A DNA stretch of 32,000 nucleotides, from assembly GCA_045589595.1 (NCBI GenBank), contig JAZNPK010000043.1, forward strand, positions 82,623-114,622. The letters are read 5' to 3'. This document shows positions 4,465-29,688 of this stretch, in pieces; the first letter of the stretch is position 1; each line of letters begins with the position of its first letter. The position numbers and the translations under genes were made by a program. Source of the DNA: Victivallales bacterium. Its GTDB lineage: Bacteria; Verrucomicrobiota; Lentisphaeria; Victivallales; UBA1829. A model generated the notes under the pieces. That model saw only the letters and a list, made by a program, of their open reading frames with translations. It had not been told where the DNA came from and made no database searches.

Positions 4465-4624
4465 ATGCCGTTGTCATTTTTTTGTCCGCAAACCGGAGTT
4501 GAGTCCGGTGGTACAGACAGAAATTGACAGGACCGGTCGTGTCTGAAAAAAAACGGCTGGTGGCAGAAGTTTTGCAATTCAGAAGTACAGTAGTTTAATG
4601 TCATAACAGCAACAATGAGGATGG

Positions 4625-6769
4625 TTGATTATGAGTCGGTTGGTAATATCGTTTGTGAAAGAATGGTTGAACGAAAAGCGCAGCAATGGAATACGTGTGA
4701 TCCGTCAACTTGAAAAATGGATCGCTTCTCTGGATAATGTTACATTCAAGGGCGGCTCCGCCCGTGAACTGATCGTGGAATTGCCGACCGAAGAACGGGA
4801 AAAATTTCTGAAAGATCTGGCAGAACGGATGACCGTTGATTTCGGTGAGACCGATCCCTGGGCACATACGATCTTTTCTGGCGATATTGACGGATTGGAT
4901 GTGCCGACCGGAGAAACAGAAGAATCCGGATCCGGCGAAACAGAAGAAATTGAAGATGATCCTGTTCCGCCGTCCGAAGATGAATCCGGAAAAGATGAGA
5001 CTCCGGAGGATGACGGTCCGCAGAAATCCCACACCGGAAAACGCGAAGGCTTGCCAAAGAAACTTGAACAGATCTTCAGTAAAGTCCCGATCAGACATTG
5101 TCCCGTATTGGAAGCCTATGCTCGCGAGACGGTTGAGGTGATACCGATGCTGCAGAAGATGGGGACTGCGTCCGCGTTGTGGCATCAGCATCTGCTGTTG
5201 GCTGTTGATCCCGGTTATGGGTGTTCTGAATTTTTTAATGATCTGGTTCAGATCTACAGAACGTACGGACTTGTGAAGGGAGGGGCTGCGAAACGATACG
5301 TGCAGGAGTACGCTCTGCTGCCACGGGGCAAAATGCAGGACAATGATAATGATTACTGTGTCACCTGGGCGAATCTGCTCAAAAAAGTGCAGGAAACAGC
5401 GCATGAAAATAAGTACGAAGGTGTTTCCACAGTATTGATCTGTATCGATATATCAGAATGGCAATCTCTGCTGGCAACATCCGAATGCAAAGATTATCTG
5501 CGCCAGCTGAATTCGCTGTGCGGTACTTTTCTTATCGTGTTCCGGATCCCGTTTGTTGTGGGGAATATGCTGAACGCCACGGCTGATGCGCTGAACGACA
5601 TCCTGAATGTGCGCACACTTGCCGTCCCGCCGGTATCTCTCAATGATATGGTCGATTATACATGCGAGGAATTGAAAAAGAATGGGTTGAGTCTTGACGA
5701 CAACGCACGCAATTCTCTGGAACAGACTCTGCTGCTTGAAAAAAGAGACGACAGCTTTTTCGGTTACAAGACAGCAGATAAGATCGTGCGGAAGATGATC
5801 TATAACAAGGCCCTTGCAAATTGCCGCAGCAAAGAGGATAACCGGGTCATCACCACCGGTGAATTTGAGCCGATCCCCGGTACAGGTGCCGATGACGACC
5901 CCATTGCCGAACTGAAGAAAATGATCGGGATGAGCGAAGTGGAACGGCGTCTCAACGAAGTGATCATACAGGTCAAGACCCAGAGAAAACTTGCCGCCCA
6001 GGGAAAAAATGTGGCAAGACCCGCCATACACATGATCTTTACCGGGAACCCCGGTACCGGAAAAACAACGGTGGCACGCATTCTTGCCCGCATGATGCAG
6101 CAGGAAGGCATTTTGCGCAAAGGGCATTTTGTGGAAGTCAAGGGACGCGATCTCTGTGGACAGTACGTGGGCGAAACTGCCCCGAAAACAAGTGCGATCT
6201 GCCGGGATGCGTACGGCTCTGTACTCTTTATCGATGAGGCATATACTCTGTTCAATCGTGATTTGGGCAGCAGGGATTTCGGACGCGAAGCGTTGGATAC
6301 CCTTGTGGCGGAAATGGAAAATCATCGCGAAGATCTTTGTGTCGTCATGGCAGGTTACAAGGATGAAATGGAAGTAATGCTCAAAGCCAATGCCGGTCTC
6401 AAAGACCGCATCCCCTTCGAGATCGAATTCCCCAACTACACAAAGGATGAACTTGAACAGATATTCTTTGTGATGCTTGACGGCGTTTTCGAGTATGAAA
6501 ATGACCTGCAGGAGGCAGTACATAAATTTTTTGCGGAAATACCGCAGGAAACATTTACTTCCAAAGGTTTCAGCAATGCGCGCCTTGTACGTAATCTGTT
6601 CGAACGTACATGGTGCAAAGCTGCATGCCGTCAGAATATGGAAGGCGGAGAATTGCGTATCCTCAAAAGCGATTTGATCGGGGCCGCCGCAGACAGCGAA
6701 TTCAAGAAACTTTTAGCGCAGAAAGCTGTAAAACGGACAGCAATCGGGTTTAATGCTTTACAGAAATAA
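4625..6769 (+). CDS. Tandem AAA+ protein: unknown N-domain and acidic linker, degenerate AAA+ module, then an intact CbbX/SpoVK/EccA-type AAA+ ATPase module
   Basis: Walker A GNPGTGKT (6044-6067) and Walker B VLFIDEAY (from 6224). The CbbX-type continuation FGREALDTLVAEMENHREDLCVVMAGYKDEM...NAGLKDRIPFEIEFPNYTKDEL is present. The more likely start is the ATG at 4631, 10 nt after GAGGA. An upstream module has DPGYGCSE in the Walker-A position and VLICIDISEW in the Walker-B position. Confidence 0.9.
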   Translation: MIMSRLVISFVKEWLNEKRSNGIRVIRQLEKWIASLDNVTFKGGSARELIVELPTEEREKFLKDLAERMTVDFGETDPWAHTIFSGDIDGLDVPTGETEESGSGETEEIEDDPVPPSEDESGKDETPEDDGPQKSHTGKREGLPKKLEQIFSKVPIRHCPVLEAYARETVEVIPMLQKMGTASALWHQHLLLAVDPGYGCSEFFNDLVQIYRTYGLVKGGAAKRYVQEYALLPRGKMQDNDNDYCVTWANLLKKVQETAHENKYEGVSTVLICIDISEWQSLLATSECKDYLRQLNSLCGTFLIVFRIPFVVGNMLNATADALNDILNVRTLAVPPVSLNDMVDYTCEELKKNGLSLDDNARNSLEQTLLLEKRDDSFFGYKTADKIVRKMIYNKALANCRSKEDNRVITTGEFEPIPGTGADDDPIAELKKMIGMSEVERRLNEVIIQVKTQRKLAAQGKNVARPAIHMIFTGNPGTGKTTVARILARMMQQEGILRKGHFVEVKGRDLCGQYVGETAPKTSAICRDAYGSVLFIDEAYTLFNRDLGSRDFGREALDTLVAEMENHREDLCVVMAGYKDEMEVMLKANAGLKDRIPFEIEFPNYTKDELEQIFFVMLDGVFEYENDLQEAVHKFFAEIPQETFTSKGFSNARLVRNLFERTWCKAACRQNMEGGELRILKSDLIGAAADSEFKKLLAQKAVKRTAIGFNALQK

Positions 6770-6772
6770 TCA

Positions 6773-7303
6773 ATGAACGAAAGGAAAAAAAGTATGGAAC
6801 GGGAACAAATTGTATCTGTGGTGCGTGATTGGCTTGATGCAAATGACTGGAATTATGAATACGATGCAGAATACCACTACATCACAAGCGGTATCACCTG
6901 CGGCGGGAAATTTCAAGCAGTCAGACTGCTTGTTGCTTTCTCAGAATATTCTTACTCGGTATACACGATTGCGCCGCTCGCCTGCGAACAGGAATATATG
7001 GACGAACTCAACCGGTATATGTCGCATCTGAACTTTACGCTCCAGAACGGTTACTTCAGCATTGATATGAGGGATGGCGAGATCCGCTATAAGATCTTCG
7101 TAAATTGTGATGATCTGGAACAGCTCCCGGATGTGATCATCAGAGACAGCATTCTCCTCGGTGCTTTGATGATGAATAAATACGAAACCGCTATCGCCGG
7201 AGTGGCTTTGGGTTTTTCAGATGCAAAAACTGAAATCAAGAAGCTGGAAGGGGATGACGATGATATGGAAGATACGGATGACGATGCCGGGGCAGAGGAA
7301 TAA
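6773..7303 (+). CDS. YbjN-like (T3SS-chaperone-fold) protein with a poly-acidic C-terminal tail
   Basis: The pattern VVRDWLDANDWNYEYD...FQAVRLLVAF..YSVYTIAPL....MDELNRYMSHLNFTLQNGYFSIDMRDGEIRYKIF matches my memory of the YbjN family layout. The tail is EGDDDDMEDTDDDAGAEE. An alternative start at ATG 6794 has the better RBS (AAGGA, 8 nt upstream). Confidence 0.65.
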   Translation: MNERKKSMEREQIVSVVRDWLDANDWNYEYDAEYHYITSGITCGGKFQAVRLLVAFSEYSYSVYTIAPLACEQEYMDELNRYMSHLNFTLQNGYFSIDMRDGEIRYKIFVNCDDLEQLPDVIIRDSILLGALMMNKYETAIAGVALGFSDAKTEIKKLEGDDDDMEDTDDDAGAEE

Positions 7304-7308
7304 AAAAT

Positions 7309-7332
7309 AAAATACAACCGCCCCTGTATTTT
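7309..7332 (+). terminator. Weak AT-rich hairpin (possible attenuator) between cassette genes 2 and 3
   Basis: 8-bp stem AAAATACA / TGTATTTT with an 8-nt loop ACCGCCCC. The stem runs straight into T residues. The all-AT stem makes it weak. Confidence 0.25.
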
Positions 7333-7376
7333 CTTTGAAGTTCACGTTGTGGAAAACACTGAAATGGAGTATGATA

Positions 7377-9272
7377 ATGAAAAAATTTTTTGACAGATAT
7401 TTGTTTTCGCGGATGGGACTTCAAATCGCTTTTTCTGTTTTGGCGATCCTGGCGTTTTCTGTATTGTTGACCTGCATCAAAAACGGCGCTACTGCTGCCG
7501 GAAATGATGCATCATACAGTCAGTTGTCGTGGGGATTCTGTCAACTGGCGGATGGCGGGTCCGTGACGACAACTCTGAAGGAACTTGATCAGATCCGCAT
7601 CGATGGCGGGAATGTGCCGGTTATACTTGTGATCGCATTGCTGTCATGGATCATCGGTATGATCCTGTGCGGTTTTGTCACCGGCGCGATCGTCAATGCC
7701 TTTGATGGCAGAAGAGACAAGATCAAATCCGGGCAGACACGCTACAAATTCAAAGATCACGGTCTGATCCTCGGCTGGGGGGGACAGGGAGTCGCTGTCG
7801 TTCAGAGTATGCTGCAGCCGCAGAAGATGATCAATGAGGTCCTCATCGTTTCGGAAACGCCTGCCGGAGAAATCACTGCCACGCTGAAGAAGATCCTGAA
7901 CGCATCTCAGTTGAGAAATATTTATATCTACAACTGCTCCGTCGATGTCATGGATAATATCAGGAAACTTCAGGCAGAACTCGCCCGGACCATTGTCATT
8001 CTCGGCGAACAGAATCATGCGGATAAAGACGGGGAAGCATTGCATACGGAACAGCTTCTCCAGAAATATGTACGGGAAAAAATCACGGTAGATACAAAAG
8101 AACAATTTACAAATCTCCCGATCAAACTTTATCTTCACCTTGAGGATCCCGCGCTTTATCTGCATGCACGCTCGGAGGAAAACGGTTTTGTGGAAGACGA
8201 TATCATCGACATCGAACTGTGCAATTTCTACGAAAGCTGGGCGTGGTATTGCTGGTCCAAAGCCAATTCCGCCGATAATTCCGGTGCGCCTTATCTGCCC
8301 CTGCGGCACAAGCGCGGTTCAACCCGTGTGGAATTGTTTGTGATCGGCTCCGATCCCATGGCTCAGGCTCTGGTCAATTACGCGATCCCTCTCCTGAATT
8401 ACGGCGAAAACAGCAAACACAGGATCACACTCTTTGATGCCGATGGTGATGGTGAGGACTGGCTGCCGAAACGGCAGGTGGCTGATTCCCTGCCGGAGGT
8501 CGAGATCGTCAGCAAACGATGCAGCGGCGGCTCCAATGAAGCCGGCGATATCATATATGAGGCTGCTGTGCGTGAAGATACTTCCGTAACGGTCGTGATC
8601 GCTGTCCCCGGCGCAGATGCTGCGGTAAAAGCCTATGCTGCGTTGTCGCATCAGGTCCGCCGCAAGGATATCTCTGTGCTGATCCGGCAGTCAACCGAAT
8701 GTGCCAACTGTATCGGAAAAGGATTGCTCCAGACGTGCGGAGATCATGCAGAACTCCGTTATTTCGGCATGACGGATATCCTGCCGTGGATGGATTCGTC
8801 CCGTGGGGAATACGGCAGAGATATCAATTACAGTTACGAAACCGTTGCGGCTGTTGTTGCAAAAAGCGATTTGAAACAAATTGAACCACCGGAAAAGTTT
8901 TTGGAGATCCTGAACATTGCGTTGCAGTGTCCGTACGGAAAAGAACAGCAGGATGAAGCCGAAAAACAGTGGCAGGGGATCCTGCGCTGGAAACGCTGGT
9001 CAAGCATCAGCACCGGTGACAGTTTCAAGGAAAAGGCATTTGCATTCCCCGATTGTACATCCAATGCGGAAAACTGCGTTGTTTTTCTGCGGGCGGAGCA
9101 TAACCGCTGGTGGGCTGAACGCCTGTTGGCGGGCTGGTGTTTTGCTGAAAAAAGAGACAATAAAGAATTTTTGCATCCGATGCTGACTGAGTTTGAAAAA
9201 CTGAGCGCAGAAACACAGTGTTATGATCTGCTCGGCATTGTCGCAATGAAAAATGCGGGATTATTGAAATAA
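7377..9272 (+). CDS. Membrane protein: 2-TM pore (CASTOR/POLLUX-like), two Rossmann/RCK-like domains and a C-terminal RyR domain
   Basis: TM1 is GLQIAFSVLAILAFSVLLTCI. A pore-loop-like segment YSQLSWGFCQLADGGSVTT carries ADGG at 7548-7559. TM2 is VPVILVIALLSWIIGMILCGFVTGAIVNAF. Rossmann motifs are GLILGWGGQGVAVV and VELFVIGSDPMAQAL. The C-terminal AEHNRWWAERLLAGWCFAEKRDNKEFLHPMLTEFEKLSAETQCYD is RyR-domain-like. ATG 7377 lies 7 nt after GGAG, and the track ORF begins at TTG 7335. Confidence 0.85.
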   Translation: MKKFFDRYLFSRMGLQIAFSVLAILAFSVLLTCIKNGATAAGNDASYSQLSWGFCQLADGGSVTTTLKELDQIRIDGGNVPVILVIALLSWIIGMILCGFVTGAIVNAFDGRRDKIKSGQTRYKFKDHGLILGWGGQGVAVVQSMLQPQKMINEVLIVSETPAGEITATLKKILNASQLRNIYIYNCSVDVMDNIRKLQAELARTIVILGEQNHADKDGEALHTEQLLQKYVREKITVDTKEQFTNLPIKLYLHLEDPALYLHARSEENGFVEDDIIDIELCNFYESWAWYCWSKANSADNSGAPYLPLRHKRGSTRVELFVIGSDPMAQALVNYAIPLLNYGENSKHRITLFDADGDGEDWLPKRQVADSLPEVEIVSKRCSGGSNEAGDIIYEAAVREDTSVTVVIAVPGADAAVKAYAALSHQVRRKDISVLIRQSTECANCIGKGLLQTCGDHAELRYFGMTDILPWMDSSRGEYGRDINYSYETVAAVVAKSDLKQIEPPEKFLEILNIALQCPYGKEQQDEAEKQWQGILRWKRWSSISTGDSFKEKAFAFPDCTSNAENCVVFLRAEHNRWWAERLLAGWCFAEKRDNKEFLHPMLTEFEKLSAETQCYDLLGIVAMKNAGLLK

Positions 9273-9308
9273 ACAGGAAATGATTAAAAACGAAGGAGAT
9301 ATTCCTGT

Positions 9309-11885
9309 ATGAGTGAAAAATATCAGATTTTTTTGAGTTATTCGCACAAAGATGCGAAAGATTACGGTATCGATTACATCACGGAGATCAAACGGCAGAT
9401 CGAGGAATCCATCGGCGAAAATGTATTTCTGGATGTGGATGCACTGAGGCTGGGCAACGCGTGGAACGCTAAAATACAGGGGCATCTGGACAGAAGCAAA
9501 GTTTTTATCTGTCTGCTCTCTGAAAATTATATCAAGTCTGAATACTGCACCCGTGAACGCTTGTGGTGGGCGCAGAAGGAAATGGCGAAAGGCAGATTTC
9601 AGAAAGCAACACTGCCCGTCTTTTATATTCAGATCAAAACAGAGGATGAAACGATCCTGCAACGCTGGGAGGAAATGCAGATCCTTCAGAATGATGTGCG
9701 CCCCTGGTTCCCCGAAGGTGCCGGTCAGGTTGCTGCAAAATTGGTCAGTGAGCGTCTGAAAACTGCCAAACTTCTCGCCCGGATCGACCAGATCAGCAAG
9801 GATGAAGACACATGTTCAAAAATCATTTGTTCCGTTCCGCCTTACAATCTGAATTTTGTGGGACGCATCAAAGATTTGAGTAATGTCCGGCAGATTTGTC
9901 AGCACAGCGGGATGGCTGCCGGCTCCATTCCGGTGATCCACGGCGAACCGGGCTGTGGAAAAAGTGAGATCGCCTTTGCTTACGCACACGGTTATGCTTC
10001 TGAATATCCCGGCGGGCTTTTTTTTGTTCCGATGGAGCATGTGACAGAATGGAGTATGGCGTGGCAGAAACTCTCAAATGAATATGATAATAAACGCTGT
10101 ATGGCGATTTATGAACTTCTGGGCTTGAAGAAGGACGACCGGAAACTGCCGCCGGAAGAATTTGCGAAGACGTTCGCCCGGCAGATGTGGATCCATGTTT
10201 CCGACAGCGGCCGTACATTGATCCTCCTGGATAATCTTGACTGTATGGAGCTCATTTCGGAGGGCGGTCTGAAAAGACTGTTTCCCAATGGCAGTATCCC
10301 GGAAAATCTGGATCTGATCGCCACTACCCGGAATACGCCCCATCCGCTCCAGAACAGTAAGGCGGTTCCCGTCCCCATCGGTGATCTCGGGGAAGAAGCC
10401 GCACTGGAACTTTTGCGTTTGCATTGTGAAGGATCGGATTTCAATCAGGCGCCGCCGATGGATGGTGATGAGACAGCTGCCGCAAAAGAACTGCTGAGGT
10501 TTCTGCAATATCACGCATGGTCTGTGGAGATCATCGCCGGGTATCTGGGGCAGGAATACCGTTACGGGGCAACACCCCGGACGATTTTGGAACAGCTGAA
10601 AGATAATTTTGAGATCAACACAAGATACAAAACGCTCCGGGAGATCCCCGACAGCATTGATGCCCTGCTGAATCCGACCATTGAACAGATCCGGAAACAG
10701 GAATTAGGCGGGGAGATCCTCGAATTGGCAAGCGCAGCTGCCATGTTTTCGCCGGATGCCGTGGGACTCGATCTGCTCAGAAAGTTCTGGATAAAGCGTT
10801 ATGGCGGTGTGACTTGCAGTAAAACGGACTCCTGGCTTTTTGCATGGGAGACCCTGAAAGATCATCACCTGCTTTCTGTGGAAAATAACGGCATTTCCCG
10901 TATGCACCGTCTGACACAAAATTACTTTTTGAAATTCGGTCAGAAAAAACAGAAGGGGTTTGCAGATGATATCAGAATCACCATAGAACAGACCCCAAAA
11001 TCCGATTTTAAAAAAGAGGATGCCGTGGCTGTTGCCGGCTTGGCAAAATTCATCCTTGCGCAATCGTGGAACGGGGAATTTTTACATTCCATTCCCAACT
11101 GGGTGGAAGATATTTTGCTGGAATGGTATTGCATTGATGACGCAAAAATCCTGCTGGATGAACTGGAAAAAATCGCCAATGACCATAAGGACGATGCTGA
11201 TCTGGCATATTCATTGATCAGTATCCGTGGAAAATTTTATGAACGATCCGGCAACTTTGCGCAGGCATTGGAGAAGTATCAGAACGCGCTGAAAACGGCT
11301 CAAAATGCCAAAGATGATCAGATGATCGCTGGTTCTTATCTTTGCATCGGAAATGTGTATTCTGATCTTGGCGACTTTGAAAAAGCGCTTGAGTTTTATA
11401 CCAAAAGTTTGGAAATCAAAAAACAAACCCTTCCGGAAAATCACCCCGATATCGCAGTCTCCTACAATAACATTGGAAATGTGTATTATAATCTTGGCGA
11501 GCATAAAAAAACGCTTGAGTTTTATACTAAAAGTCTTGAAATCCGGCAACAAACCCTTCCGGAAAATCATCCCGATATCGCAGTCTCCTACAATAACATC
11601 GGGTGTGTGTATTCTGATCTTGGCGAGCATAAAAAATCGCTTGAGTTTTATACCAAAAGTCTTGAAATCCGGCAACAAACCCCTCCGGAAAATCACCCCG
11701 ATATCGCAGACTCCTACTATAACATTGGGTTAGTGTACAAAAGGCTGAAAGACTATGAAAATGCATTGTTGTCCTTTACAAAGGCAAAAGAGATTTATGC
11801 AATCTGCTATGGCGTGGAACATCCGGAAACCGTTGACTGCAATAAACGCATAGAGGACATCAAAGGCGAAATTGCAGCCGGCTAA
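9309..11885 (+). CDS. TIR-NB-ARC-TPR STAND NTPase (bacterial TIR-NLR-like)
   Basis: TIR region: IFLSYSHKD...VFICLLSENYIKSEYCTRERLWW, with the conserved Glu (E83) at 9555-9557. P-loop GEPGCGKS at 9942-9965, Walker B LILLDNLD, and the NB-ARC-like LIATTRN. The C-terminus has at least five TPR units of kinesin-light-chain type (ALEFYTKSLEI..QTLPENHPDIAVSYNNIGNVY). RBS GGAG sits upstream of the ATG. Confidence 0.92.
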   Translation: MSEKYQIFLSYSHKDAKDYGIDYITEIKRQIEESIGENVFLDVDALRLGNAWNAKIQGHLDRSKVFICLLSENYIKSEYCTRERLWWAQKEMAKGRFQKATLPVFYIQIKTEDETILQRWEEMQILQNDVRPWFPEGAGQVAAKLVSERLKTAKLLARIDQISKDEDTCSKIICSVPPYNLNFVGRIKDLSNVRQICQHSGMAAGSIPVIHGEPGCGKSEIAFAYAHGYASEYPGGLFFVPMEHVTEWSMAWQKLSNEYDNKRCMAIYELLGLKKDDRKLPPEEFAKTFARQMWIHVSDSGRTLILLDNLDCMELISEGGLKRLFPNGSIPENLDLIATTRNTPHPLQNSKAVPVPIGDLGEEAALELLRLHCEGSDFNQAPPMDGDETAAAKELLRFLQYHAWSVEIIAGYLGQEYRYGATPRTILEQLKDNFEINTRYKTLREIPDSIDALLNPTIEQIRKQELGGEILELASAAAMFSPDAVGLDLLRKFWIKRYGGVTCSKTDSWLFAWETLKDHHLLSVENNGISRMHRLTQNYFLKFGQKKQKGFADDIRITIEQTPKSDFKKEDAVAVAGLAKFILAQSWNGEFLHSIPNWVEDILLEWYCIDDAKILLDELEKIANDHKDDADLAYSLISIRGKFYERSGNFAQALEKYQNALKTAQNAKDDQMIAGSYLCIGNVYSDLGDFEKALEFYTKSLEIKKQTLPENHPDIAVSYNNIGNVYYNLGEHKKTLEFYTKSLEIRQQTLPENHPDIAVSYNNIGCVYSDLGEHKKSLEFYTKSLEIRQQTPPENHPDIADSYYNIGLVYKRLKDYENALLSFTKAKEIYAICYGVEHPETVDCNKRIEDIKGEIAAG
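11385..11762 (+). repeat. Three tandem 126-bp (42-codon) near-identical units encoding TPR pairs
   Basis: Units start at 11385, 11511 and 11637, each beginning (g/a/t)CGCTTGAGTTTTATAC(C/T)AAAAGT. Long identical runs such as CCGGAAAATCA(C/T)CCCGATATCGCAG recur in each unit. A more diverged unit precedes them from about 11259. Confidence 0.85.
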
Positions 11886-16737: not shown

Positions 16738-18024
16738 TTAGTTACAGATATTTACTTGTTTTTCAGCCGGGAACAGTTCCATCAGTGCGGCGGAAAAAAG
16801 TTTCATGCCGCGCAGATCGGGGTGATTGATCCCGTTGGTCATACACGCCATATAGGGGAAACCCATTTCCGCCCATTCGGCATATTTTGCGGATGCATCC
16901 GCCAGAGCGATCCCGTTCTTTTCCGTAAAGTCGCGCAGGAAATGGACGAATTTCCGGGGATCGTCTTTGCAAAAACGGATTTCCCGTACGGTATGACCCG
17001 CCATCCAGGAGGCAAGGATCCAGTGAGGCGTCAGGATGATCCATTCTTTACCGGCGGCACGGAACGCTTTCAGGATCTTTTCATAAGCCGGGATGAATCG
17101 TTCAGGGGTGGTCCCGGCATCGTTGACAAATTCACTGACGATCAGGTCTGCATCCGTTTCCAGAATGCGTGACGCAAAATGGAAGGGGGAATCTTCTGCC
17201 GCGGCAAGGAAATCCATTGAGGTGTGTCCATCCCATCCGCGTGAGATCAATTCGATTTTGCAGCGGGGATATTTTTTTGCCAGAGCCTTTGTAAAAAGGA
17301 CCTGCCAGTGCTGATTTTCGGGCAGATAATTACATTCAGTAACGCTGTCGCCCCAGGCGAGGACCCGCAGTTTTTTTCCTTTACGGAGTTTTTTCAGCGT
17401 GCCGGGCAGCAGGGGTTCTGCGGAACCGGCACGGGGGAGACGGGAAAAGCGTTTTTTCGTGACCGGATAGATCATTTCTTCAGTCAGGCGGTCATAATGC
17501 CGGGAGTAGTAAATGTTTGCCAGCCGTTCCCAGCCCCGGGGCAGGGCGGGAACACGGGGCATGATCGGATGCGTTTTGCCGCAGATCACGCGGATCTCAC
17601 CGTTTTCTCTGTTCCGGATCACGGAATCGAGCCGGGAAAGACAATGATCGTAGGAGATGAAGACGGGCATCCCCTCCCGGATCTTTCCCTTTTCCAGACG
17701 CCCGGCACTGCCCCAGATCTCTTCACATTCATAATCTTTGCCACGTTTGAAGACCTTTCCCGCAGTGCTGCTGATGACCACGCTGCCGGGAATGAGTCCG
17801 CATTCTGTCCAGTTATATCCTCTGCGGGTGAGTGCCTTGAACGCATACGGCGCATTCCAGCGGGCGTCGGGATTGAAAACGGGCAGGGCTTCGCAATATT
17901 CTTTTTCCACATGGACAGGTTCCGGCGGGGTGAGTCGGAGCTTCCGGCGTTTTCCGTCAATGGAAAGATTCAGTGTCCAGGCTTCCTTCTGATCCGGCAG
18001 AAAAGCGATCTTCTCACTTGTCAT
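16738..18024 (-). CDS. SGNH/GDSL hydrolase with an N-terminal extra domain
   Basis: Block I LAWGDSVTE, block III EFVNDAG and block V GINHPD. The start is taken at ATG 18024-18022, preceded by GGAGG. The track's 29 extra N-terminal codons lack an RBS. Confidence 0.8.
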   Translation of the reverse strand: MTSEKIAFLPDQKEAWTLNLSIDGKRRKLRLTPPEPVHVEKEYCEALPVFNPDARWNAPYAFKALTRRGYNWTECGLIPGSVVISSTAGKVFKRGKDYECEEIWGSAGRLEKGKIREGMPVFISYDHCLSRLDSVIRNRENGEIRVICGKTHPIMPRVPALPRGWERLANIYYSRHYDRLTEEMIYPVTKKRFSRLPRAGSAEPLLPGTLKKLRKGKKLRVLAWGDSVTECNYLPENQHWQVLFTKALAKKYPRCKIELISRGWDGHTSMDFLAAAEDSPFHFASRILETDADLIVSEFVNDAGTTPERFIPAYEKILKAFRAAGKEWIILTPHWILASWMAGHTVREIRFCKDDPRKFVHFLRDFTEKNGIALADASAKYAEWAEMGFPYMACMTNGINHPDLRGMKLFSAALMELFPAEKQVNICN

Positions 18025-18375
18025 AAAAGACCTCCGTGTGATCGGTGATTTGTTTTTTTGTATCAGCGTTGCAAAAGGTTGAAAAAAAGGGACACCGATA
18101 ATATATACCACCGGAAAATTTTTGCAAGCGGCATCCGCCGCGGACCGGGCGGAAGTTGATTTTATCTGTCGGATAAGCGGAAACGCTCCGGCAGATGAAA
18201 AGCGGATAAAAAAAGCAAAAACGCTGTAAACAGTTTGATTTTTCAGAACGATGGTGTAAAATATCCGGAAGAACAGCGCGATGTTCTGCGCTTACGATCA
18301 CAACGATGCCGAATCTGAATTTATCCGCATTGGCGGATGGATGTACAGAGATCCGGTCAGACAGGGAGAAAGATA

Positions 18376-21852: not shown

Positions 21853-21949
21853 ATCTCATCTCCTGCGTTGGACGTTTTTTATACAGTAAAGCTCCGTGCG
21901 CGGAATGTCAAGCCACTGAAAAATTATTTTATTTTCCGGCATGCTGTTC

Positions 21950-21978
21950 TTGACTCCGGCGCGTTTATGTATTATAAT
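21950..21978 (+). promoter_or_regulatory. Near-consensus sigma70-type promoter for the large surface-protein gene
   Basis: TTGACT (21950-21955), a 17-nt spacer and TATAAT (21973-21978), 58 nt upstream of ATG 22037. Confidence 0.5.
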
Positions 21979-22036
21979 TATATTGCGGGATATGGTTTTG
22001 AACAGAGATGAAATAACTTTTTACGGGGGTAAAAAA

Positions 22037-25000
22037 ATGAGCCTGGAAAAAACATTGACAGTTGAAACGGTCGGGGATGCGGCAGAAATGGTTTCATCCG
22101 CCGCTGCAGTTACAATCGCCGCTTCCGATGCGGAAATCCTGCCGGATTCCGATGGCGGCGTGATCACCTCCGGGACCGTGACCACCATCGACGGTGTGCC
22201 GGAACTGGAATACATGCACGGCTGTACCGCCACTGTGATCGGTATGATCTTCGGTTATTACGACCGGAACGGGTACAAGGGCTACGATTTTTCCAACCTT
22301 ATTGACGGAAAAGCTGAACTTGATGCCAGAGGTCTGGACGGCAATATCCACGATATGGACGCCTTCGATACCAATCTGGGATCTGCCGTGGCTTCTGAAG
22401 AATTTGTGGCGCGTTTTGTCGGCACGACTCCGGCAAAGGAATTTCAGTATTCCTTCACCCAGTCCGGCAGCAATCTGTACCTGAATACATCCGCATGGAA
22501 CTGTATTGCCGACTATATCGGGACGGGGCAGTACTGGCGTCACAATACGGACAACTTCACGTCCCATTACTATGATACGCTCGCCGACATCAAAAACTAC
22601 ACATTCACGCTCGAAATTTCAGATTCCTCTACCGGAAAAACTGTGGATGTCCCGGCAAAATATGTTGATCTGCTCTACGGACTTGATCTGTACGTCACCT
22701 CCCGCGGATACAGTCTGGATGAAGATAAGACCCTGACCTCCTATGTCGATACCTACGAAGATAAAAACGGGACATTCACCTTCGAAGATTACAAGGCGGA
22801 GATCGATGCCGGAAGATGCGTGATCATATCCATCGAAGGTCATGCCATGCTCGGTTACGGATACGATGACAGCACCGATGAAGTCATTTTTGACGATACT
22901 TACAGACGGGATCAGCGGATGGAATGGGGCGGCAGTTACTACTATTCCGGCAGGTCCCGCGAAATGAGAAGCGTTACCACCATCGTGCTGGATACCACCG
23001 GTGAAAGTGCCTGGGTCCTGCCCGTACCCGATGCCCCTGAAAATCTCACTGCCAGTACCACCGCGCCGACCAATCAGAACGTGACTGTCACCGCCTCTTT
23101 CGATCCGGACGCATACGCCAACTGGTATTCGCTCAACCAGGGACAATCCTGGAAGCGCTATTACTCCTCCGGTGTTACAGTTTCAAGCAATCTTACCGTC
23201 AGTTTCAAAAGTACAAACAAAAACGGTGCGTCATCCAAGTCGGTCCATTACAAAGTCTCCAACATTGATAAAACTGCTCCGAATGCCCCCACGGTCGCCG
23301 TCAGCACCACTGCCGCCAATGTGTCCACGGTCACTGTCTCCGCCACATTCAGCAGTGATTCGGCGAAGAAACAGTATTCCTACGACAACTCTGTCTGGTA
23401 CACCTATCGCGGCAGCATCACGCTCTCCGCAAACGATACCCTCTATTTCCGGGGCATCGACGCTGCCGGAAATATTTCTGCTGTTGCTTCAAAGACCGTC
23501 AGCAATATTGCCGTTGCCGATGATCTGGAGAAACCGGTGATCACCGCCAGTACCACCGCCGCCACCAACAAAGATGTGATCCTGTGGGCGGATTCCGGCG
23601 ACAAGGCAGTGAAAGTGGAATATTCCAGAAACAATGCCGACTGGTTCACTTATGACGAAGCCACCGGCGTTTCCATGGCAGCCAACGGGACCGCTTATTT
23701 CCGCAGTGTCAATATTACCGGTGTGAAATCTGCGGTGACCACGTACAAGGTCACCAATATCGACAAAGTCGCGCCCACGGCGCCCACCACCGCTGTCAGC
23801 ACCACATCTTCCAATGTGAAATCCGTTACGGTCACCGCGTCTTACAGCAGCGATTCCGCCAAAAAGGAATATTCTTTCGACAAAACCGTCTGGCAGACGT
23901 ATTCCGGCGGTGTGACCGTGACCGAAAACAGAAGTCTGTATTTCCGCGGAACCGACGCCGCCGGAAACCATTCGTCCATCACTGCGCGGACCATCAGCAA
24001 CATTGCGGCAAATACTGTGACAACGCCCACGGTCACCGCCAGTACCACCAAGCCCACAAATCAGAATGTGGTCCTGACCGCCACATACACCACGGGCGGT
24101 TCCATTGAATATTCGCTCGACTATGAAATCTGGCAGTCCTGTCCCGCAGGCGGAAAACTGACCGTTACGCAGAATGCCACCATCTTTTTCCGCGGAGTGG
24201 ATAAATTCGGCAACCGTTCCGCGGCAAAACATTTCACCGTCAGCAATATCGACAAGACCGCACCCGCCAAGCCTACGGTCAGTGTCAGCACCTCGAAAAA
24301 GACCGAAGGGACCGTTACCGTTTACGCCGCTTTCGACAGCGATGCAAGTACCCGGCAGTACAGCCTCGACAACAAAACGTGGAAGACTTATTCCTCCGGC
24401 GTTTCCATGTCGAAAAACGGGACCGTTTATTTCCGGGGTGTGGATGCCGCCGGAAACCGTTCCGCAGTGGCGTCGTACAAAGTCAGCAATATTGTGGACC
24501 AGACCGCGCCCACAGGCGGCAAGATCACGCTGAAACAGACATCCGGCACCAGCGTTTCCGTTTCCATCAGCGGCTTCACAGACAAAGGCGGGATCGCACG
24601 TTATGACGTCTATCTGGCGGGTAAAAAGATCGGGTCCACCACAAGCACGGCTTATACCTACAAAGCCGCGTCCCAGCTCACCGGCACACTGAAATTTTCC
24701 GTGAAGGCGGTCGATACCTCCGGCAATGTGTCCGCCGGAAGATCCGCATCCCTGACCACAAAAAAATTCACCGTTCTGACCGTTGTCGGCACTGCCACCG
24801 AAAAGACCACGACTCTGAAATGGAATCCTGTCACGATGGCCGAACCGCTCAAGCAGTACGAGATTTCCATTGCGGGCGTGAAGAAAGTGTACAAGAGCAA
24901 GACCAACAGCGTCACCATCAAGAAACTGGCGGCGGGCAATCAGAAATTTACGGTGTACGCCGTGGACAAGGCGAAGAACCGCAAACTGGTTGCCTCCAAT

Positions 25001-26098
25001 GAAGAGATCCACATTAAAGACGTTACTGCGCCCAAAGGCGGCAGACTCAAACTCACCCAGAAGAGCCAGAACAGCGTCCAGATCGCCATCAGCAACTTCA
25101 AGGACAATGTGGGCGTAAAGAGTTACGAGGTCTATCTCGGCAGTACAAAAGTCGGCACGACCACAAGTTCCAGTTATACTTACAACGGCAAGGACCTTGG
25201 CGGGAAATTGCAGTTCAGCGTGTACGCAGTTGACGCCGCCGGAAACAAATCCAAGGCAAAAAAAGCATCCATCAAGATCAAGGATGCCACCGCGCCGACG
25301 AAAGTCACGGGACTGAAAGTTTCCGGTACGCCCAACGAAAAGACTTCCGTTCTGACATGGACCGCCGCAAAGGACAATGTGGGCGTGACGCAGTACGAGA
25401 TCAAGGTCTCCGGCAGCACGAAAGTTTACAAGAGCAAGACCAACAGCGTCACCATCAAGAAGTTGACGCCCGGCAAGCATACTTACACGGTGACCGCCAT
25501 CGACAAGGCGAAGAACCGCAGTACGGTCTCCGCGTCTGCCGCCTTCACGGTGAAGGACATCACTGCGCCCAAGGGCGGCAGCGTTAAACTGGCGCAGTCC
25601 GGCAACACCATCAAGTTCACCATCAGCAAGTTCAAAGACAACGTTGGCGTCAAGAGTTACGAGGTCTACCTCGGCGATAAAAAAGTCGGCACAACATCAA
25701 GCGCGGCTTACACATACAAAGGCGCGTTGACGGCAGGGAAGATGCAATTCAGTGTTGTTGCGGTTGACGCCGCGGGGAACAAATCCAAGGCGAAGAAGGC
25801 GTCCATCAAAGTGACTCCCGTTGCCGACAAGACCGGCGATGCATTGACGGAATTTCTGCCGGACAGCACCGGGTCTGTTGATCTGGCGGCATGGAACGAT
25901 CAGAACAGCGGTCTGAACGGCGGTGACGATCTTCCCGGCGGTCTGCTGCCAGACAGTGACGGGGACATGCTTTGCGGTACGGATCTCATTGATCTGGGCG
26001 AACTTACCGGCAACACAGACAACGCCGTCGGCGCTGTTGATCTGCTGAATGACGACCTCAAGAACAAGAGCAACGGCTTCAACGGAACGCTCGCCTGA
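22037..26098 (+). CDS. Large modular protein: C39-like/papain-like cysteine peptidase domain, six Ig-like repeats, five Fn3-like repeats and an acidic C-terminal tail
   Basis: ATG 22037 follows GGGGG. Putative catalytic Cys in YMHGCTATVIGMIFGYY (TGT at 22223-22225) and His in SIEGHAMLGYGYDD (CAT at 22841-22843). Six 79-86-aa repeats (23021-24508) follow the pattern P..PT...STT.PTN..V.V.A......YS.D...W..Y......N.T.YFRG.DAAGN.S......VSNID. Five alternating Fn3-like modules follow (about 24509-25810). Confidence 0.9.
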   Translation: MSLEKTLTVETVGDAAEMVSSAAAVTIAASDAEILPDSDGGVITSGTVTTIDGVPELEYMHGCTATVIGMIFGYYDRNGYKGYDFSNLIDGKAELDARGLDGNIHDMDAFDTNLGSAVASEEFVARFVGTTPAKEFQYSFTQSGSNLYLNTSAWNCIADYIGTGQYWRHNTDNFTSHYYDTLADIKNYTFTLEISDSSTGKTVDVPAKYVDLLYGLDLYVTSRGYSLDEDKTLTSYVDTYEDKNGTFTFEDYKAEIDAGRCVIISIEGHAMLGYGYDDSTDEVIFDDTYRRDQRMEWGGSYYYSGRSREMRSVTTIVLDTTGESAWVLPVPDAPENLTASTTAPTNQNVTVTASFDPDAYANWYSLNQGQSWKRYYSSGVTVSSNLTVSFKSTNKNGASSKSVHYKVSNIDKTAPNAPTVAVSTTAANVSTVTVSATFSSDSAKKQYSYDNSVWYTYRGSITLSANDTLYFRGIDAAGNISAVASKTVSNIAVADDLEKPVITASTTAATNKDVILWADSGDKAVKVEYSRNNADWFTYDEATGVSMAANGTAYFRSVNITGVKSAVTTYKVTNIDKVAPTAPTTAVSTTSSNVKSVTVTASYSSDSAKKEYSFDKTVWQTYSGGVTVTENRSLYFRGTDAAGNHSSITARTISNIAANTVTTPTVTASTTKPTNQNVVLTATYTTGGSIEYSLDYEIWQSCPAGGKLTVTQNATIFFRGVDKFGNRSAAKHFTVSNIDKTAPAKPTVSVSTSKKTEGTVTVYAAFDSDASTRQYSLDNKTWKTYSSGVSMSKNGTVYFRGVDAAGNRSAVASYKVSNIVDQTAPTGGKITLKQTSGTSVSVSISGFTDKGGIARYDVYLAGKKIGSTTSTAYTYKAASQLTGTLKFSVKAVDTSGNVSAGRSASLTTKKFTVLTVVGTATEKTTTLKWNPVTMAEPLKQYEISIAGVKKVYKSKTNSVTIKKLAAGNQKFTVYAVDKAKNRKLVASNEEIHIKDVTAPKGGRLKLTQKSQNSVQIAISNFKDNVGVKSYEVYLGSTKVGTTTSSSYTYNGKDLGGKLQFSVYAVDAAGNKSKAKKASIKIKDATAPTKVTGLKVSGTPNEKTSVLTWTAAKDNVGVTQYEIKVSGSTKVYKSKTNSVTIKKLTPGKHTYTVTAIDKAKNRSTVSASAAFTVKDITAPKGGSVKLAQSGNTIKFTISKFKDNVGVKSYEVYLGDKKVGTTSSAAYTYKGALTAGKMQFSVVAVDAAGNKSKAKKASIKVTPVADKTGDALTEFLPDSTGSVDLAAWNDQNSGLNGGDDLPGGLLPDSDGDMLCGTDLIDLGELTGNTDNAVGAVDLLNDDLKNKSNGFNGTLA
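24509..25810 (+). repeat. Intragenic modular repeat (A-B-A-B-A Fn3-like units) with a DNA-level period of about 534-537 bp
   Basis: GT(G/T)TACAAGAGCAAGACCAACAGCGTCACCATCAAGAA occurs at 24887 and 25424. TTCAA(G/A)GACAA(T/C)GT(G/T)GGCGT(A/C)AAGAGTTACGAGGTCTA occurs at 25097 and 25631. GTTGACGCCGC(C/G)GG(A/G)AACAAATCCAAGGC occurs near 25229 and 25757. Confidence 0.75.
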
Positions 26099-26167: not shown

Positions 26168-27553
26168 TTACGGGATCAGATGCGAGCGGATTGAATAGCC
26201 CGGCACATCCACCGGGACTGTGCGGAGTTTTCTGCGGTAAACGGTTCTGCCGGAAGACACATACAACATGCCGTCCTGATAGGCGATCTGCTCCGCGGGA
26301 ACATCGCCGGGCAGGGGCAGGATCAGGTCGATCATTCCGGTACACCAGACGCCCTGTACGCCCAGTTCGGTTGCGGCAACAACACGGTTGTCCGGCAGGA
26401 CGGTGATATCTTTTGCGCCGGTGATGCGGCAATCGTGATGCAGATACAGCGGTGCCAGTTTGCAGCATTGCGCAAGGGAACCATCCGGCATGATGGACAT
26501 GGCGAACAGATAGCGGCGCGTGCTGTCAGCGATATACAGCCGCCAGCGGTCGGTGGACCGTACGATGGCAGTGATCCTGCCGAATCCGGAAGCGACGACA
26601 CGGCGGTTGTTTTTTGTGCCGAGAAAGATTTTTCCGCCGGAGAATGTGTAGGTTCCTTTTCCGGTCCTGACCGGTTTCTTTTCCGGCATGGTCCCATTGC
26701 AGATCTCCCAGCGGGAACCCGGTTCCAGCAGTTGGCTGATGCGTCTCTGATTGAACAGGGGGCGGACTGTGGGATCGCTCTGCCAGTTCGCCCAGAGGAA
26801 TGTGACGATCCGCCGCCAGAGTGTACTGTCCTGTCTGCGGCAGCAGTGTCCTTCGCCGTTGAACTGTTCGTACCGGAAATCGTATCCGGCGAACTCAAAC
26901 GTATCGGCGGCGTTCAGAGCGGCGTAAAGGGACGATCCGTCCACACCGGCAGGTTCTTCCGTACCGGCTGTCATATAGATCCGGATGGGGCGTGCTTCGC
27001 TTTTCCGGACGATGGTCAATGTTTCTTCGCCGCCCCGTTCTGCGGCAAACGTGGGACTGCTCAAGAAGGTGCGGCGGAAATAATCGTTCCGGAACCAGAC
27101 AGCGTTCCATGCGAGGGTCCCGCCTGACGATCCGCCGGTAATGAAGTGCATATCAGGACTCTGATCCAGAACTGCGCCTGCGGTTTTTGCGGCGTGGGGG
27201 ATCAGTTCCTCCACCATGAAATCGGAGAAATCCCGGTTGTATTCATCAAATTCCTCCGTTCTCATGCCCCGCGGCAGACCTTTCGGCAGGGTAGGTTCCA
27301 GGATTCCGGGGTAGAAAAACAGCACCAGACCCGGCGGCATCAGCCCTTCATCCATAAATGCGGAAAGGAAGGGACACATGATTTCCGGCGTATGTTCCAG
27401 CAGGACATACAGCGCCAGATTTTTCCCCGATTTCAGTGCGGCGGGGGCGAGGTATGTGTGATAGGTGAACTTTGTGCCGGGTTCGTACTTTTTCCCGGTG
27501 TAAGTCAGATCTTTCTGCAGGGTGCCGGGTATCACGACGGTTTCTTCACTCAT
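26168..27553 (-). CDS. Esterase (esterase D / enterochelin-esterase-like alpha/beta hydrolase) with a C-terminal beta-propeller-like region
   Basis: Nucleophile elbow FITGGSSGGTLAW (GxSxG) in the context typical of the 'putative esterase' family. The C-terminal 200 aa is beta-rich and repetitive, so the propeller call is tentative. Confidence 0.75.
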   Translation of the reverse strand: MSEETVVIPGTLQKDLTYTGKKYEPGTKFTYHTYLAPAALKSGKNLALYVLLEHTPEIMCPFLSAFMDEGLMPPGLVLFFYPGILEPTLPKGLPRGMRTEEFDEYNRDFSDFMVEELIPHAAKTAGAVLDQSPDMHFITGGSSGGTLAWNAVWFRNDYFRRTFLSSPTFAAERGGEETLTIVRKSEARPIRIYMTAGTEEPAGVDGSSLYAALNAADTFEFAGYDFRYEQFNGEGHCCRRQDSTLWRRIVTFLWANWQSDPTVRPLFNQRRISQLLEPGSRWEICNGTMPEKKPVRTGKGTYTFSGGKIFLGTKNNRRVVASGFGRITAIVRSTDRWRLYIADSTRRYLFAMSIMPDGSLAQCCKLAPLYLHHDCRITGAKDITVLPDNRVVAATELGVQGVWCTGMIDLILPLPGDVPAEQIAYQDGMLYVSSGRTVYRRKLRTVPVDVPGYSIRSHLIP

Positions 27554-29633: not shown

Positions 29634-29688
29634 CCGGAAACAACAGATCAATCACGATTGCAATTCAAAGTAAAATGAGGCTGAAAAC

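Follow-up and report, generated by a model that had tools for sequence, protein, structure and literature searches.

A 2TM-RCK-RyR channel-like protein encoded beside a TIR gene in a Victivallales bacterium: a candidate effector of TIR signalling

The channel gene and its TIR partner

A 32,000-nucleotide stretch of the genome of a Victivallales bacterium from gut or rumen (contig JAZNPK010000043.1; hereafter the window) carries a gene at 7377-9272 that an earlier reading, made from the letters of the DNA only, described as encoding an ion-channel-like protein with two RCK-like Rossmann domains and a RyR domain, next to a gene for a TIR enzyme. This open reading frame (ORF) lies on the + strand, starts with ATG and is intact, its 631 codons specifying a protein of 631 amino acids (aa), and all four peptides quoted in that sequence-only reading were found in its translation. 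Because aligned homologues begin MKKFFD.YLFS, the ATG at 7377 is the likely start and was preferred over an alternative upstream TTG at 7335. The TIR gene also lay where it had been placed, 36 nt downstream, as the channel stop codon ends at 9272 and an ORF with a TIR_2 domain runs from 9309. The features of this gene pair, with the transmembrane helices abbreviated TM, are the following.

7377..9272, + strand: gene for the channel-like protein, 2TM-RCK1-RCK2-RyR (translation, Pfam, phmmer, AlphaFold2 (AF2) with Foldseek, BLASTP)
7413..7490, + strand: TM1, the outer helix, aa 13-38 (AF2 helix 13-38; aligns with S5 of the sister protein P0041)
7512..7574, + strand: pore-helix-like segment and putative filter, aa 46-66, SYSQLSWGFCQLADGGSVTTT (aligns with FSGLWWAVATLTTVGYGD of P0041)
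7614..7727, + strand: TM2, or inner helix, and linker to RCK1, aa 80-117 (AF2 helix 80-117; alignment with S6 of P0041)
7749..8276, + strand: RCK1, Rossmann-like domain, about aa 125-300 (Foldseek matches to CASTOR, GsuK and DMI1; weak DMI1 profile matches)
8319..8786, + strand: RCK2, Rossmann-like domain, about aa 315-470 (AF2 strands and helices alternating over aa 317-463; Foldseek matches to tandem-RCK gating rings)
8934..9269, + strand: RyR domain, about aa 520-631, with H575, W578, H600 and D617 (Pfam RyR; ryanodine-receptor repeats in the PDB)
9273..9308: intergenic gap of 36 nt between the channel stop and the TIR gene start
9309..11885, + strand: gene for an 858-aa TIR-STAND-TPR protein, with TIR at aa 1-140, a P-loop NTPase at about 180-600 and TPR at about 610-850 (Pfam)

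The gap at 9273-9308 contains neither a promoter-like nor a terminator-like site, which is consistent with co-transcription of the channel and TIR genes. Two or three terminator-like hairpins with T-rich tails were seen at 9062-9134, inside the 3' end of the channel coding sequence where the RyR motif is encoded; these hairpins, which do not lie past the stop codon, are probably chance matches.

The product of 9309-11885 matched TIR_2 above the Pfam threshold (E 1e-12) and TPR_12 (E 5e-45), with weak matches to AAA_22, nSTAND3 and NB-ARC. Its E83 aligned with the Glu residues of two motifs, WCLMEL in flax L6 and WTNYEL in AbTir, which we take to be the catalytic glutamates of those proteins, and the partner TIRs at other loci carry W-V-R-x-E. 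A second locus (L005) keeps the pair, with an orthologue of the TIR gene after the channel gene, and the conserved unit is channel plus TIR-STAND-TPR.

Domains of the channel protein

The protein consists, in order, of TM1, a pore-helix-like loop, TM2, two RCK domains and a C-terminal RyR domain. An AF2 single-chain model, built from an alignment of 66 homologues (A1) that also served for the residue-conservation counts below, reached a mean predicted local distance difference test score (pLDDT) of 89.6 and a predicted template modelling score (pTM) of 0.83. It contained two long membrane helices (aa 13-38 and 80-117) separated by two short ones, and behind this membrane part two alpha/beta Rossmann-type domains and a helical C-terminal domain with a beta hairpin. 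RyR (PF02026) was the sole Pfam match of the protein. Since Pfam gave no match to TrkA_N, to Ion_trans_2 or to Castor_Poll_mid (PF06241, none at E<=1), the evidence for the RCK domains and the pore comes from structure and paralogues.

Three sister proteins of 798 aa (P0041, P0043 and P0044) are 39-42% identical to the window's protein over the RCK-RCK-RyR module, in front of which they carry a 6TM voltage-gated-type K+ channel (Ion_trans E 5e-34, Ion_trans_2 E 3e-15). Because the same cytoplasmic module stands behind a canonical 6TM K+ channel in these proteins, the N-terminal module of the window's protein is the place where the pore would sit. In BLASTP, aa 7-123 aligned through the membrane region with S5, pore helix, filter and S6 of P0041, so that SYSQLSWGFCQLADGG stood opposite the P0041 pore helix and filter AFSGLWWAVATLTTVGY. 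The alignment of TM2 with S6 contained three one-residue gaps, and the linker from a common TG motif to RYKF.DHG, at the start of RCK1, was gap-free and equally long in both proteins. The N-terminal module thus appears equivalent to a K+ channel pore module, and this natural domain swap is the strongest argument for a pore role; we consider it likely that the 2TM module is the channel pore. A GsuK profile match across TM1-pore-TM2-RCK1 was weak (E 0.13, profile 14-164 against chain 18-160).

Judged by its residues, the loop is clearly no K+ filter: T-V-G-Y-G is not in the protein, which reads QLADGGSV at that position, and TTVGYGD was present only in the 6TM paralogues P0041, P0043 and P0044. 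The family consensus over the 66 sequences is WG[FL]xQ..DGG[SF]V..T, with W52 in 66/66, G53 in 65/66, Q56 in 63/66 and T66 in 61/66. The sequence-only reading had compared ADGG with ADSGNHA / ADAGNHA, which it gave as the CASTOR/POLLUX/DMI1 filter. That longer motif is not in the protein, and the A-D-G-G that is common to them is kept neither in the family nor in the closest orthologue. We rejected ADGG as a conserved selectivity filter, since it is a majority motif (D59 in 48/66 sequences) and an orthologue with 87% identity has AAGSS in its place. What stands of the proposed CASTOR/POLLUX-like pore is therefore a module at the K+ channel pore position of the paralogues, and not the strictly conserved ADGG "filter".

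A Foldseek comparison of the AF2 model with the PDB returned tandem-RCK ion channels as all of its top matches (E 2e-6 to 1e-4, probability 1.00), these being the LjCASTOR gating ring, GsuK (including ADP- and NAD-bound structures), the MtDMI1 gating ring, Slo1/BK, MthK and SLO3. The TM-scores were modest, 0.34-0.40 on the query and up to 0.61 on GsuK, so that the match reflects common domain folds and the relative positions of the domains may differ. Profile searches matched RCK1 to the DMI1 gating ring at E 0.039 with the A1 profile and at E 0.0012 with the profile of a sister subfamily (A4), and the MthK match was weak (E 0.54); though weak, the sequence matches to GsuK, MthK and DMI1 converge. 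A phmmer search of PDB sequences gave weak matches to the CASTOR gating ring, and Slo-like_RCK matches in relatives were below the Pfam threshold. The two RCK-like domains and the kinship to CASTOR/DMI1 were thus upheld by structure comparison, while the corresponding Pfam families, TrkA_N and Castor_Poll_mid, failed to match. NAD(H) binding by the RCK domains, as is established for RCK/TrkA-N domains of Trk/Ktr systems, was unsupported here: GxGxxG in RCK1 occurs in this protein alone, where the family has the consensus GWDFQG, and no conserved dinucleotide-binding motif is present in these domains.

Like GsuK, MthK, Slo1 (BK), CASTOR, POLLUX and DMI1, which are its best structural matches, the protein combines a putative pore module with two RCK domains per subunit, and its A-D-x-G in a non-K+ filter is reminiscent of CASTOR. 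It differs from these channels in an identity of only about 10-12%, a loop of about 18 residues after the filter, and the additional RyR domain at its C-terminus; none of their Ca2+ or NAD ligand sites was recognised in it.

The RyR assignment was borne out by a PF02026 match at aa 574-617, which is partial (profile positions 28-71 of 91) and at 27.4 bits lies exactly at the gathering score, and by ryanodine-receptor repeat domains in a phmmer search of the PDB (E 7e-8). The same search paired residues 572-622 with 73-123 of PDB chain 35tm_A (139 aa, "Ryr domain-containing protein"), spans of equal length. If this alignment is gap-free, the four residues of 35tm_A that stand opposite H575, W578, H600 and D617 fall one position off the numbering of the phage protein RyDEP; we suspect that 35tm_A is RyDEP with one extra N-terminal residue.

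H575, W578 and H600 are invariant in the 66 homologues and D617 occurs in at least 90% of them. The spacing of these residues (+3, +25, +42) is identical to that of H75, W78, H100 and D117, the ligand residues of RyDEP (PMC13232231), and to that of H129, W132, H154 and D171 in RyR Tad of a Pectobacterium phage, whose ligand residues are H129/W132, K147/H154 and K170/D171 (10.64898/2026.06.04.730250). Phage RyR-domain proteins bind or cleave the 2' and 3' isomers of cyclic ADP-ribose (cADPR) (PMC13232231; 10.64898/2026.06.04.730250). RyR Tad bound 3'cADPR at 43 nM, and 2'cADPR and cADPR below 1 uM (10.64898/2026.06.04.730250); six of eight tested RyDEP homologues bind these signals, two of them as nanomolar sponges, and the sponge-type proteins carry the RyDEP residues without catalysis (PMC13232231). 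The caveat of the sequence-only reading that the ligand of bacterial RyR domains was unknown is out of date after these two 2026 preprints on phage proteins. On the strength of its conserved residues, the RyR domain is probably the ligand sensor of the channel, with a putative pocket for a cADPR isomer. RyDEP and RyR Tad belong to the same Pfam family and both bind TIR-made 2'/3'-cADPR, but they are small, soluble proteins by which phages counter host defence, as sponge or glycosidase, whereas the RyR domain studied here is encoded by a host, forms one protein with a channel and an RCK ring, and would be a receptor.

A further subfamily (P0078, P0081, P0085 and relatives, alignment A4) shares the 2TM-RCK core and matched RyR strongly, the A4 profile reaching E 2.8e-19 against RyR1 repeats. 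A SLOG-type sensor in place of RyR was considered for these proteins and rejected because of this match. They carry an additional C-terminal domain of about 150-250 residues that had no match in Pfam or among PDB sequences.

TIR genes and other neighbours of the family

The channel gene is a real conserved gene and its family is not tiny, with 86 homologues in one search and, in a profile search of 1.84 billion cluster representatives, 242 at E<=1e-30 and 764 at E<=1e-10. The source names of the homologues that we saw were all "hypothetical protein", and the distribution of the family is patchy. We assembled 61 loci (L001-L061), 60 of them around homologues and one (L057) around a TIR gene of type X Thoeris; they came from metagenomes and from gut or rumen metagenome-assembled genomes of Lentisphaeria, Kiritimatiellae, Akkermansia and many Bacteroidales.

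When the neighbour proteins were clustered all against all, the largest cluster was TIR, with 10/10 members matching TIR_2 above the Pfam threshold. A TIR hidden Markov model built from the confirmed neighbour TIRs and applied to 46 distinct loci found a TIR ORF near the channel gene in 17 of them, always within 5 kb. Twenty-two TIR ORFs lay in the 305 kb within 5 kb of channel genes and none in the 172 kb further out; if they were evenly spread, the chance that all 22 would fall inside 5 kb is roughly 5e-5, a rough figure, because TIR ORFs within one locus are not independent. TIR genes stop 3 nt ahead of the channel start at L018, L023, L024 and L051, and at L035 the two genes overlap. Among 103 dereplicated same-strand neighbours TIR_2 ranked first (15), with RyR at 6 and ADP-ribosylglycohydrolase, fused to a Ser/Thr kinase, at 3. 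Four extra look-ups with independent gene calls added three TIR-positive loci and two more glycohydrolases, and one extra locus (L061) repeated the layout of L014. TIR is thus the commonest neighbour of the channel family, and the link proposed from the single pair in the window holds across loci.

The TIR partners were of several types: STAND-TPR proteins (window and L005), a 1978-aa NACHT-TIR protein, a protein with two TIR domains and 15 Sel1 repeats, TIR-TM proteins with a formylglycine-generating enzyme (FGE)-sulfatase domain or a coiled coil, and a stand-alone TIR of 176 aa (L060). This diversity of architectures makes the TIR domain itself the common denominator. Many partner TIRs have a single TM helix behind the TIR domain (for example L012 6569-7300, L044 3547-7011, L046 7139-8602 and L051 1454-3936), and in two of the proteins (L049 5740-7122 and L053 2750-4204) the C-terminal FGE-sulfatase (SUMF1-like) domain would face the cell outside. 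A TIR enzyme under the control of an extracytoplasmic sensor would be unusual.

In distant homologues from Bacteroidales a separate RyR protein of 95-150 aa is often encoded beside the channel-like gene; such small RyR ORFs were seen at L016, L018-L023, L025, L026/L028, L049/L050, L053 and L056, and 13/14 of the standalone proteins keep the H..W, H and D residues. Because the separate RyR protein adjoins the channel gene in these genomes, the channel-RyR link survives gene fission. The Bacteroides "putative ryanodine receptor" structures 3NRT, 4N05 and 6UAG may be standalone RyR proteins of this kind.

The neighbourhoods were highly variable and island-like, with tandem channel paralogues at L004 10001-17881 (equal to L042), L038 1-4292 and L039 1102-5324. 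The first copy in such tandem arrays is a 6TM K+ channel (TTVGYGD) fused to RCK-RCK-RyR, and 2TM copies follow; it is possible that the paralogues form hetero-oligomers or give graded outputs. A larger cassette also recurred around homologues (L059 420-13968, L012 3-7300, L038/L039, L004/L042 and L060). It comprises a DUF4011 superfamily 1 (SF1) helicase with an MTES_1575 nuclease domain, an unannotated protein of about 706-710 aa, one to three channel paralogues that are sometimes accompanied by an AI-2E-type transporter, an unannotated protein of 328-336 aa, the Ser/Thr kinase-ADP-ribosylglycohydrolase fusion and then the TIR protein.

In the window itself, G+C content falls from 0.53-0.56 in the flanks to 0.43-0.51 across 4.0-12.0 kb, the region of a four-gene cluster that includes the channel and TIR genes. 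The cluster is bordered by metabolic genes (GH39, a GFO/IDH/MocA oxidoreductase, adenine deaminase and an M20 peptidase). The low G+C together with these ordinary metabolic flanks suggests that 4.0-12.0 kb is an acquired island.

A candidate TIR-signal effector and the alternatives

We lean, with somewhat better than even confidence, towards the reading that this protein is a cation channel gated by a TIR-made signal and the effector of a Thoeris-like or TIR-NLR (nucleotide-binding leucine-rich repeat) system; gating by a TIR product is suggested by the gene neighbourhoods and by homology. The pairing observed by the sequence-only reading was confirmed, and its interpretation, a circuit in which a TIR product opens a channel, is supported as a hypothesis. 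In Thoeris, a TIR protein is paired with an effector that binds the TIR product; Yirmiya et al. described about 29 putative types, of which type X, consisting of a ThsB-type TIR and the "ion channel" ThsK, was validated as anti-phage and has a signal that is still unknown (10.64898/2025.12.03.692087).

According to this proposal, the channel protein would be one subunit of a tetrameric P-loop cation channel, in which the outer helix, pore helix, short filter-like loop and inner helix would feed a tandem-RCK gating ring of the GsuK/CASTOR/Slo type. The TIR-STAND-TPR protein would serve as both sensor and signal generator: its TPR/STAND part may recognise a trigger, most likely a component of a phage or other invader, and oligomerise, whereupon the TIR domains, with E83 as putative catalytic residue, would produce from NAD+ an isomer of cyclic ADP-ribose or a related ADP-ribose (ADPR) derivative. 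The predicted ligand would bind the RyR pocket (H575, W578, H600, D617), the gating ring would shift, and the pore, predicted to open rather than close and to pass cations, would let ion flux collapse the membrane potential or ion balance, so that the infected cell would stop growing.

Several observations weigh against this proposal. About 60% of the distinct loci have no TIR gene within 5 kb, and among the neighbours at these loci, most of which lack a Pfam match, no other enzyme that could make a signal turned up. The channel protein had no match in PADLOC or NCBIfam, no PADLOC model fits it, and the genes flanking the window's pair are metabolic and not known defence genes. The filter-like loop is not strictly conserved, and AF2 confidence is low in the pore segment (pLDDT 54-76), as is to be expected where a segment that would need the oligomer to fold is modelled as a single chain. 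Yirmiya et al. set TIR-STAND fusions aside as likely self-contained NAD+-depleting effectors (10.64898/2025.12.03.692087). RyR repeats also bind ligands of the ATP/ADP type, so that the ligand in the cell could be a common adenine nucleotide; and the catalytic dyad of RyDEP (H, D) is present as well, so that the domain could hydrolyse the signal besides or instead of sensing it.

The first of the alternatives that these points suggest is a housekeeping or stress-responsive RCK-gated cation or K+ channel, with a RyR domain that senses ATP, ADP, NAD+ and the like as a metabolic gauge and a TIR neighbour that is independent of it. The binding of ADP and NAD by GsuK, one of the best structural matches, would suit such a channel, as would that of ATP and adenine ligands by RyR Repeat12 (PMC13232231; 10.64898/2026.06.04.730250), the metabolic flanking genes and the loci without a nearby TIR gene. 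Against it, TIR is the single most frequent neighbour, is confined within 5 kb and often abuts or overlaps the channel gene, ADP-ribosylglycohydrolase recurs nearby, the neighbourhoods are highly variable and island-like with tandem paralogues, G+C content is below that of the flanks, and the family has a patchy distribution. We regard this explanation as unlikely.

Alternatively, the TIR-STAND-TPR protein may be a self-contained, Avs-like NAD+ depleter, and the channel a second effector or amplifier that senses the fall in NAD+ or the rise in linear ADPR. TIR-STAND NTPase fusions are usually interpreted as NADase effectors, NAD+ loss had been offered as an alternative trigger by the sequence-only reading and fits an RCK/RyR nucleotide sensor, and linear ADPR stays in the RyDEP pocket after the reaction (PMC13232231). 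Against this, many other loci have a short or repeat-fused TIR without STAND, as in Thoeris ThsB, the phage RyR proteins bind cyclic isomers tightly (with nanomolar affinity for 3'cADPR), and the RCK domains have no conserved dinucleotide-binding motif. We consider this explanation quite improbable.

A last alternative is that the RyR domain is a RyDEP-like enzyme hydrolysing cADPR isomers, a membrane-anchored off-switch or buffer for TIR signalling, and that the 2TM part forms no pore and serves as an anchor. This would agree with the conserved dyad equivalents H575 and D617, the varying loop motif, the low model confidence in the membrane region and the missing Ion_trans_2 match. Against it, RyR proteins of the sponge type have these residues and are not catalytic, a full tandem-RCK ring and the swap with a canonical K+ channel pore are hard to square with a mere anchor, and W52, G53 and Q56 of the loop are nearly invariant. 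We regard it as very unlikely.

Returning to the proposed TIR-signal-gated channel, we compared it with known systems. As in Thoeris, the window's TIR gene adjoins a putative effector gene on the same strand, here with the 36-nt gap; the TIR of type X belongs to the ThsB_TIR family (PF08937), whereas that of the window is a TIR_2 domain fused to STAND-TPR, and the window's pair has no stand-alone ThsB-type TIR. The ThsK candidate that we recovered (L057:3369-3995, Vibrio sp. JCM 19052), picked by its position between two ThsB genes and not by accession, is a 208-aa membrane protein with a K+-filter-like TLTYGG, encoded between two ThsB-type TIR genes, and has no RCK, no RyR and no Pfam match. 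Identity of the channel family with the published type X effector was rejected, as this candidate, if truly ThsK, is unrelated.

Thoeris I/II and other signal-gated membrane effectors (the TM effectors of CBASS and Pycsar, and Cam1 and CorA of type III CRISPR) follow the same logic, in that an infection-triggered nucleotide signal acts on the sensor domain of a killing or arresting effector, often at the membrane, but the sensors of these systems are SLOG, Macro, SAVED or CARF domains and their effectors are not RCK channels. In the plant pathway from TIR-type NLR receptors (TNL) through EDS1 to helper NLRs, a TIR-NTPase-repeat receptor makes an NAD-derived molecule and a cation channel opens at the end; there, EDS1 heterodimers read the signal and an NLR resistosome forms the channel, whereas here the channel would read the signal directly. 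The RyR Repeat12 of the animal ryanodine receptor is likewise a repeat domain on a cation channel with conserved adenine-ligand pocket residues, but that receptor is a giant 6TM channel of the RyR/IP3R type, unrelated in pore and architecture to 2TM-RCK. To our knowledge, direct binding of cADPR to the animal receptor is unproven.

In bacteria, TIR-made ADP-ribose signals activate soluble enzymes and small membrane proteins, and we know of RyR-domain proteins tied to TIR signals so far only as phage counter-measures. In the literature searched, the coverage of which was incomplete, we found no host RCK-RyR channel described as linked to TIR. Our working hypothesis is that the channel belongs to a TIR-signalling defence system with a signal-binding effector, the effector being of a new class and its sensor domain familiar so far from the phage side only. 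A host channel with a full RCK ring and RyR sensor, repeatedly found beside TIR genes, would constitute such a class, and would carry the first RyR domain on a channel in a setting that allows its ligand to be named and tested. The family also adds to the recorded range of TIR signalling in phyla of gut and rumen (Lentisphaerota, Kiritimatiellota, Verrucomicrobiota, Bacteroidota), which screens centred on laboratory models miss.

A more tentative idea, which we consider possible and rather doubtful, is that the RyR repeat domain began as the cADPR sensor of prokaryotic immune ion channels. The family would then be a bacterial counterpart of the scheme in which TIR- or cyclase-made cADPR opens a RyR-domain cation channel, and this one two-gene module would prefigure both animal cADPR-to-ryanodine-receptor signalling and the plant pathway from TIR-NLR to Ca2+ channel. 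The direct action of cADPR on ryanodine receptors is a long-standing question, and a 631-aa bacterial channel with the same pocket residues would offer a small, tractable system in which to decide biochemically whether RyR repeat domains receive cADPR directly.

Directly upstream of the channel gene lies a further gene pair, of uncertain membership in the system.

4631..7303, + strand: AAA+ ATPase and acidic YbjN-like protein (Pfam, NCBIfam)

The first gene (4631-6769, +) encodes a 712-aa AAA+ ATPase with a SpoVK/CbbX/EccA-like core and a 420-aa N-terminal part without known identity, and the second (6773-7303, +) an acidic protein of 176 aa that matched YbjN weakly. As far as about 4505, the window hardly differs from L005, and the two genes (4505-7330) are missing from L005; because that locus is otherwise syntenic, they are an insertion relative to it. 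They were rejected as a conserved part of the system, being absent from L005 and resembling the AAA+ pair at L006 in the generic core only.

Elsewhere in the window, large ORFs on the - strand at 16738-18111, 26168-27553 and 29665-31845 had no Pfam match, and a 1385-aa ORF at 21941-26098 (+) showed weak fn3 and bacterial Ig-like matches near its C-terminus only.

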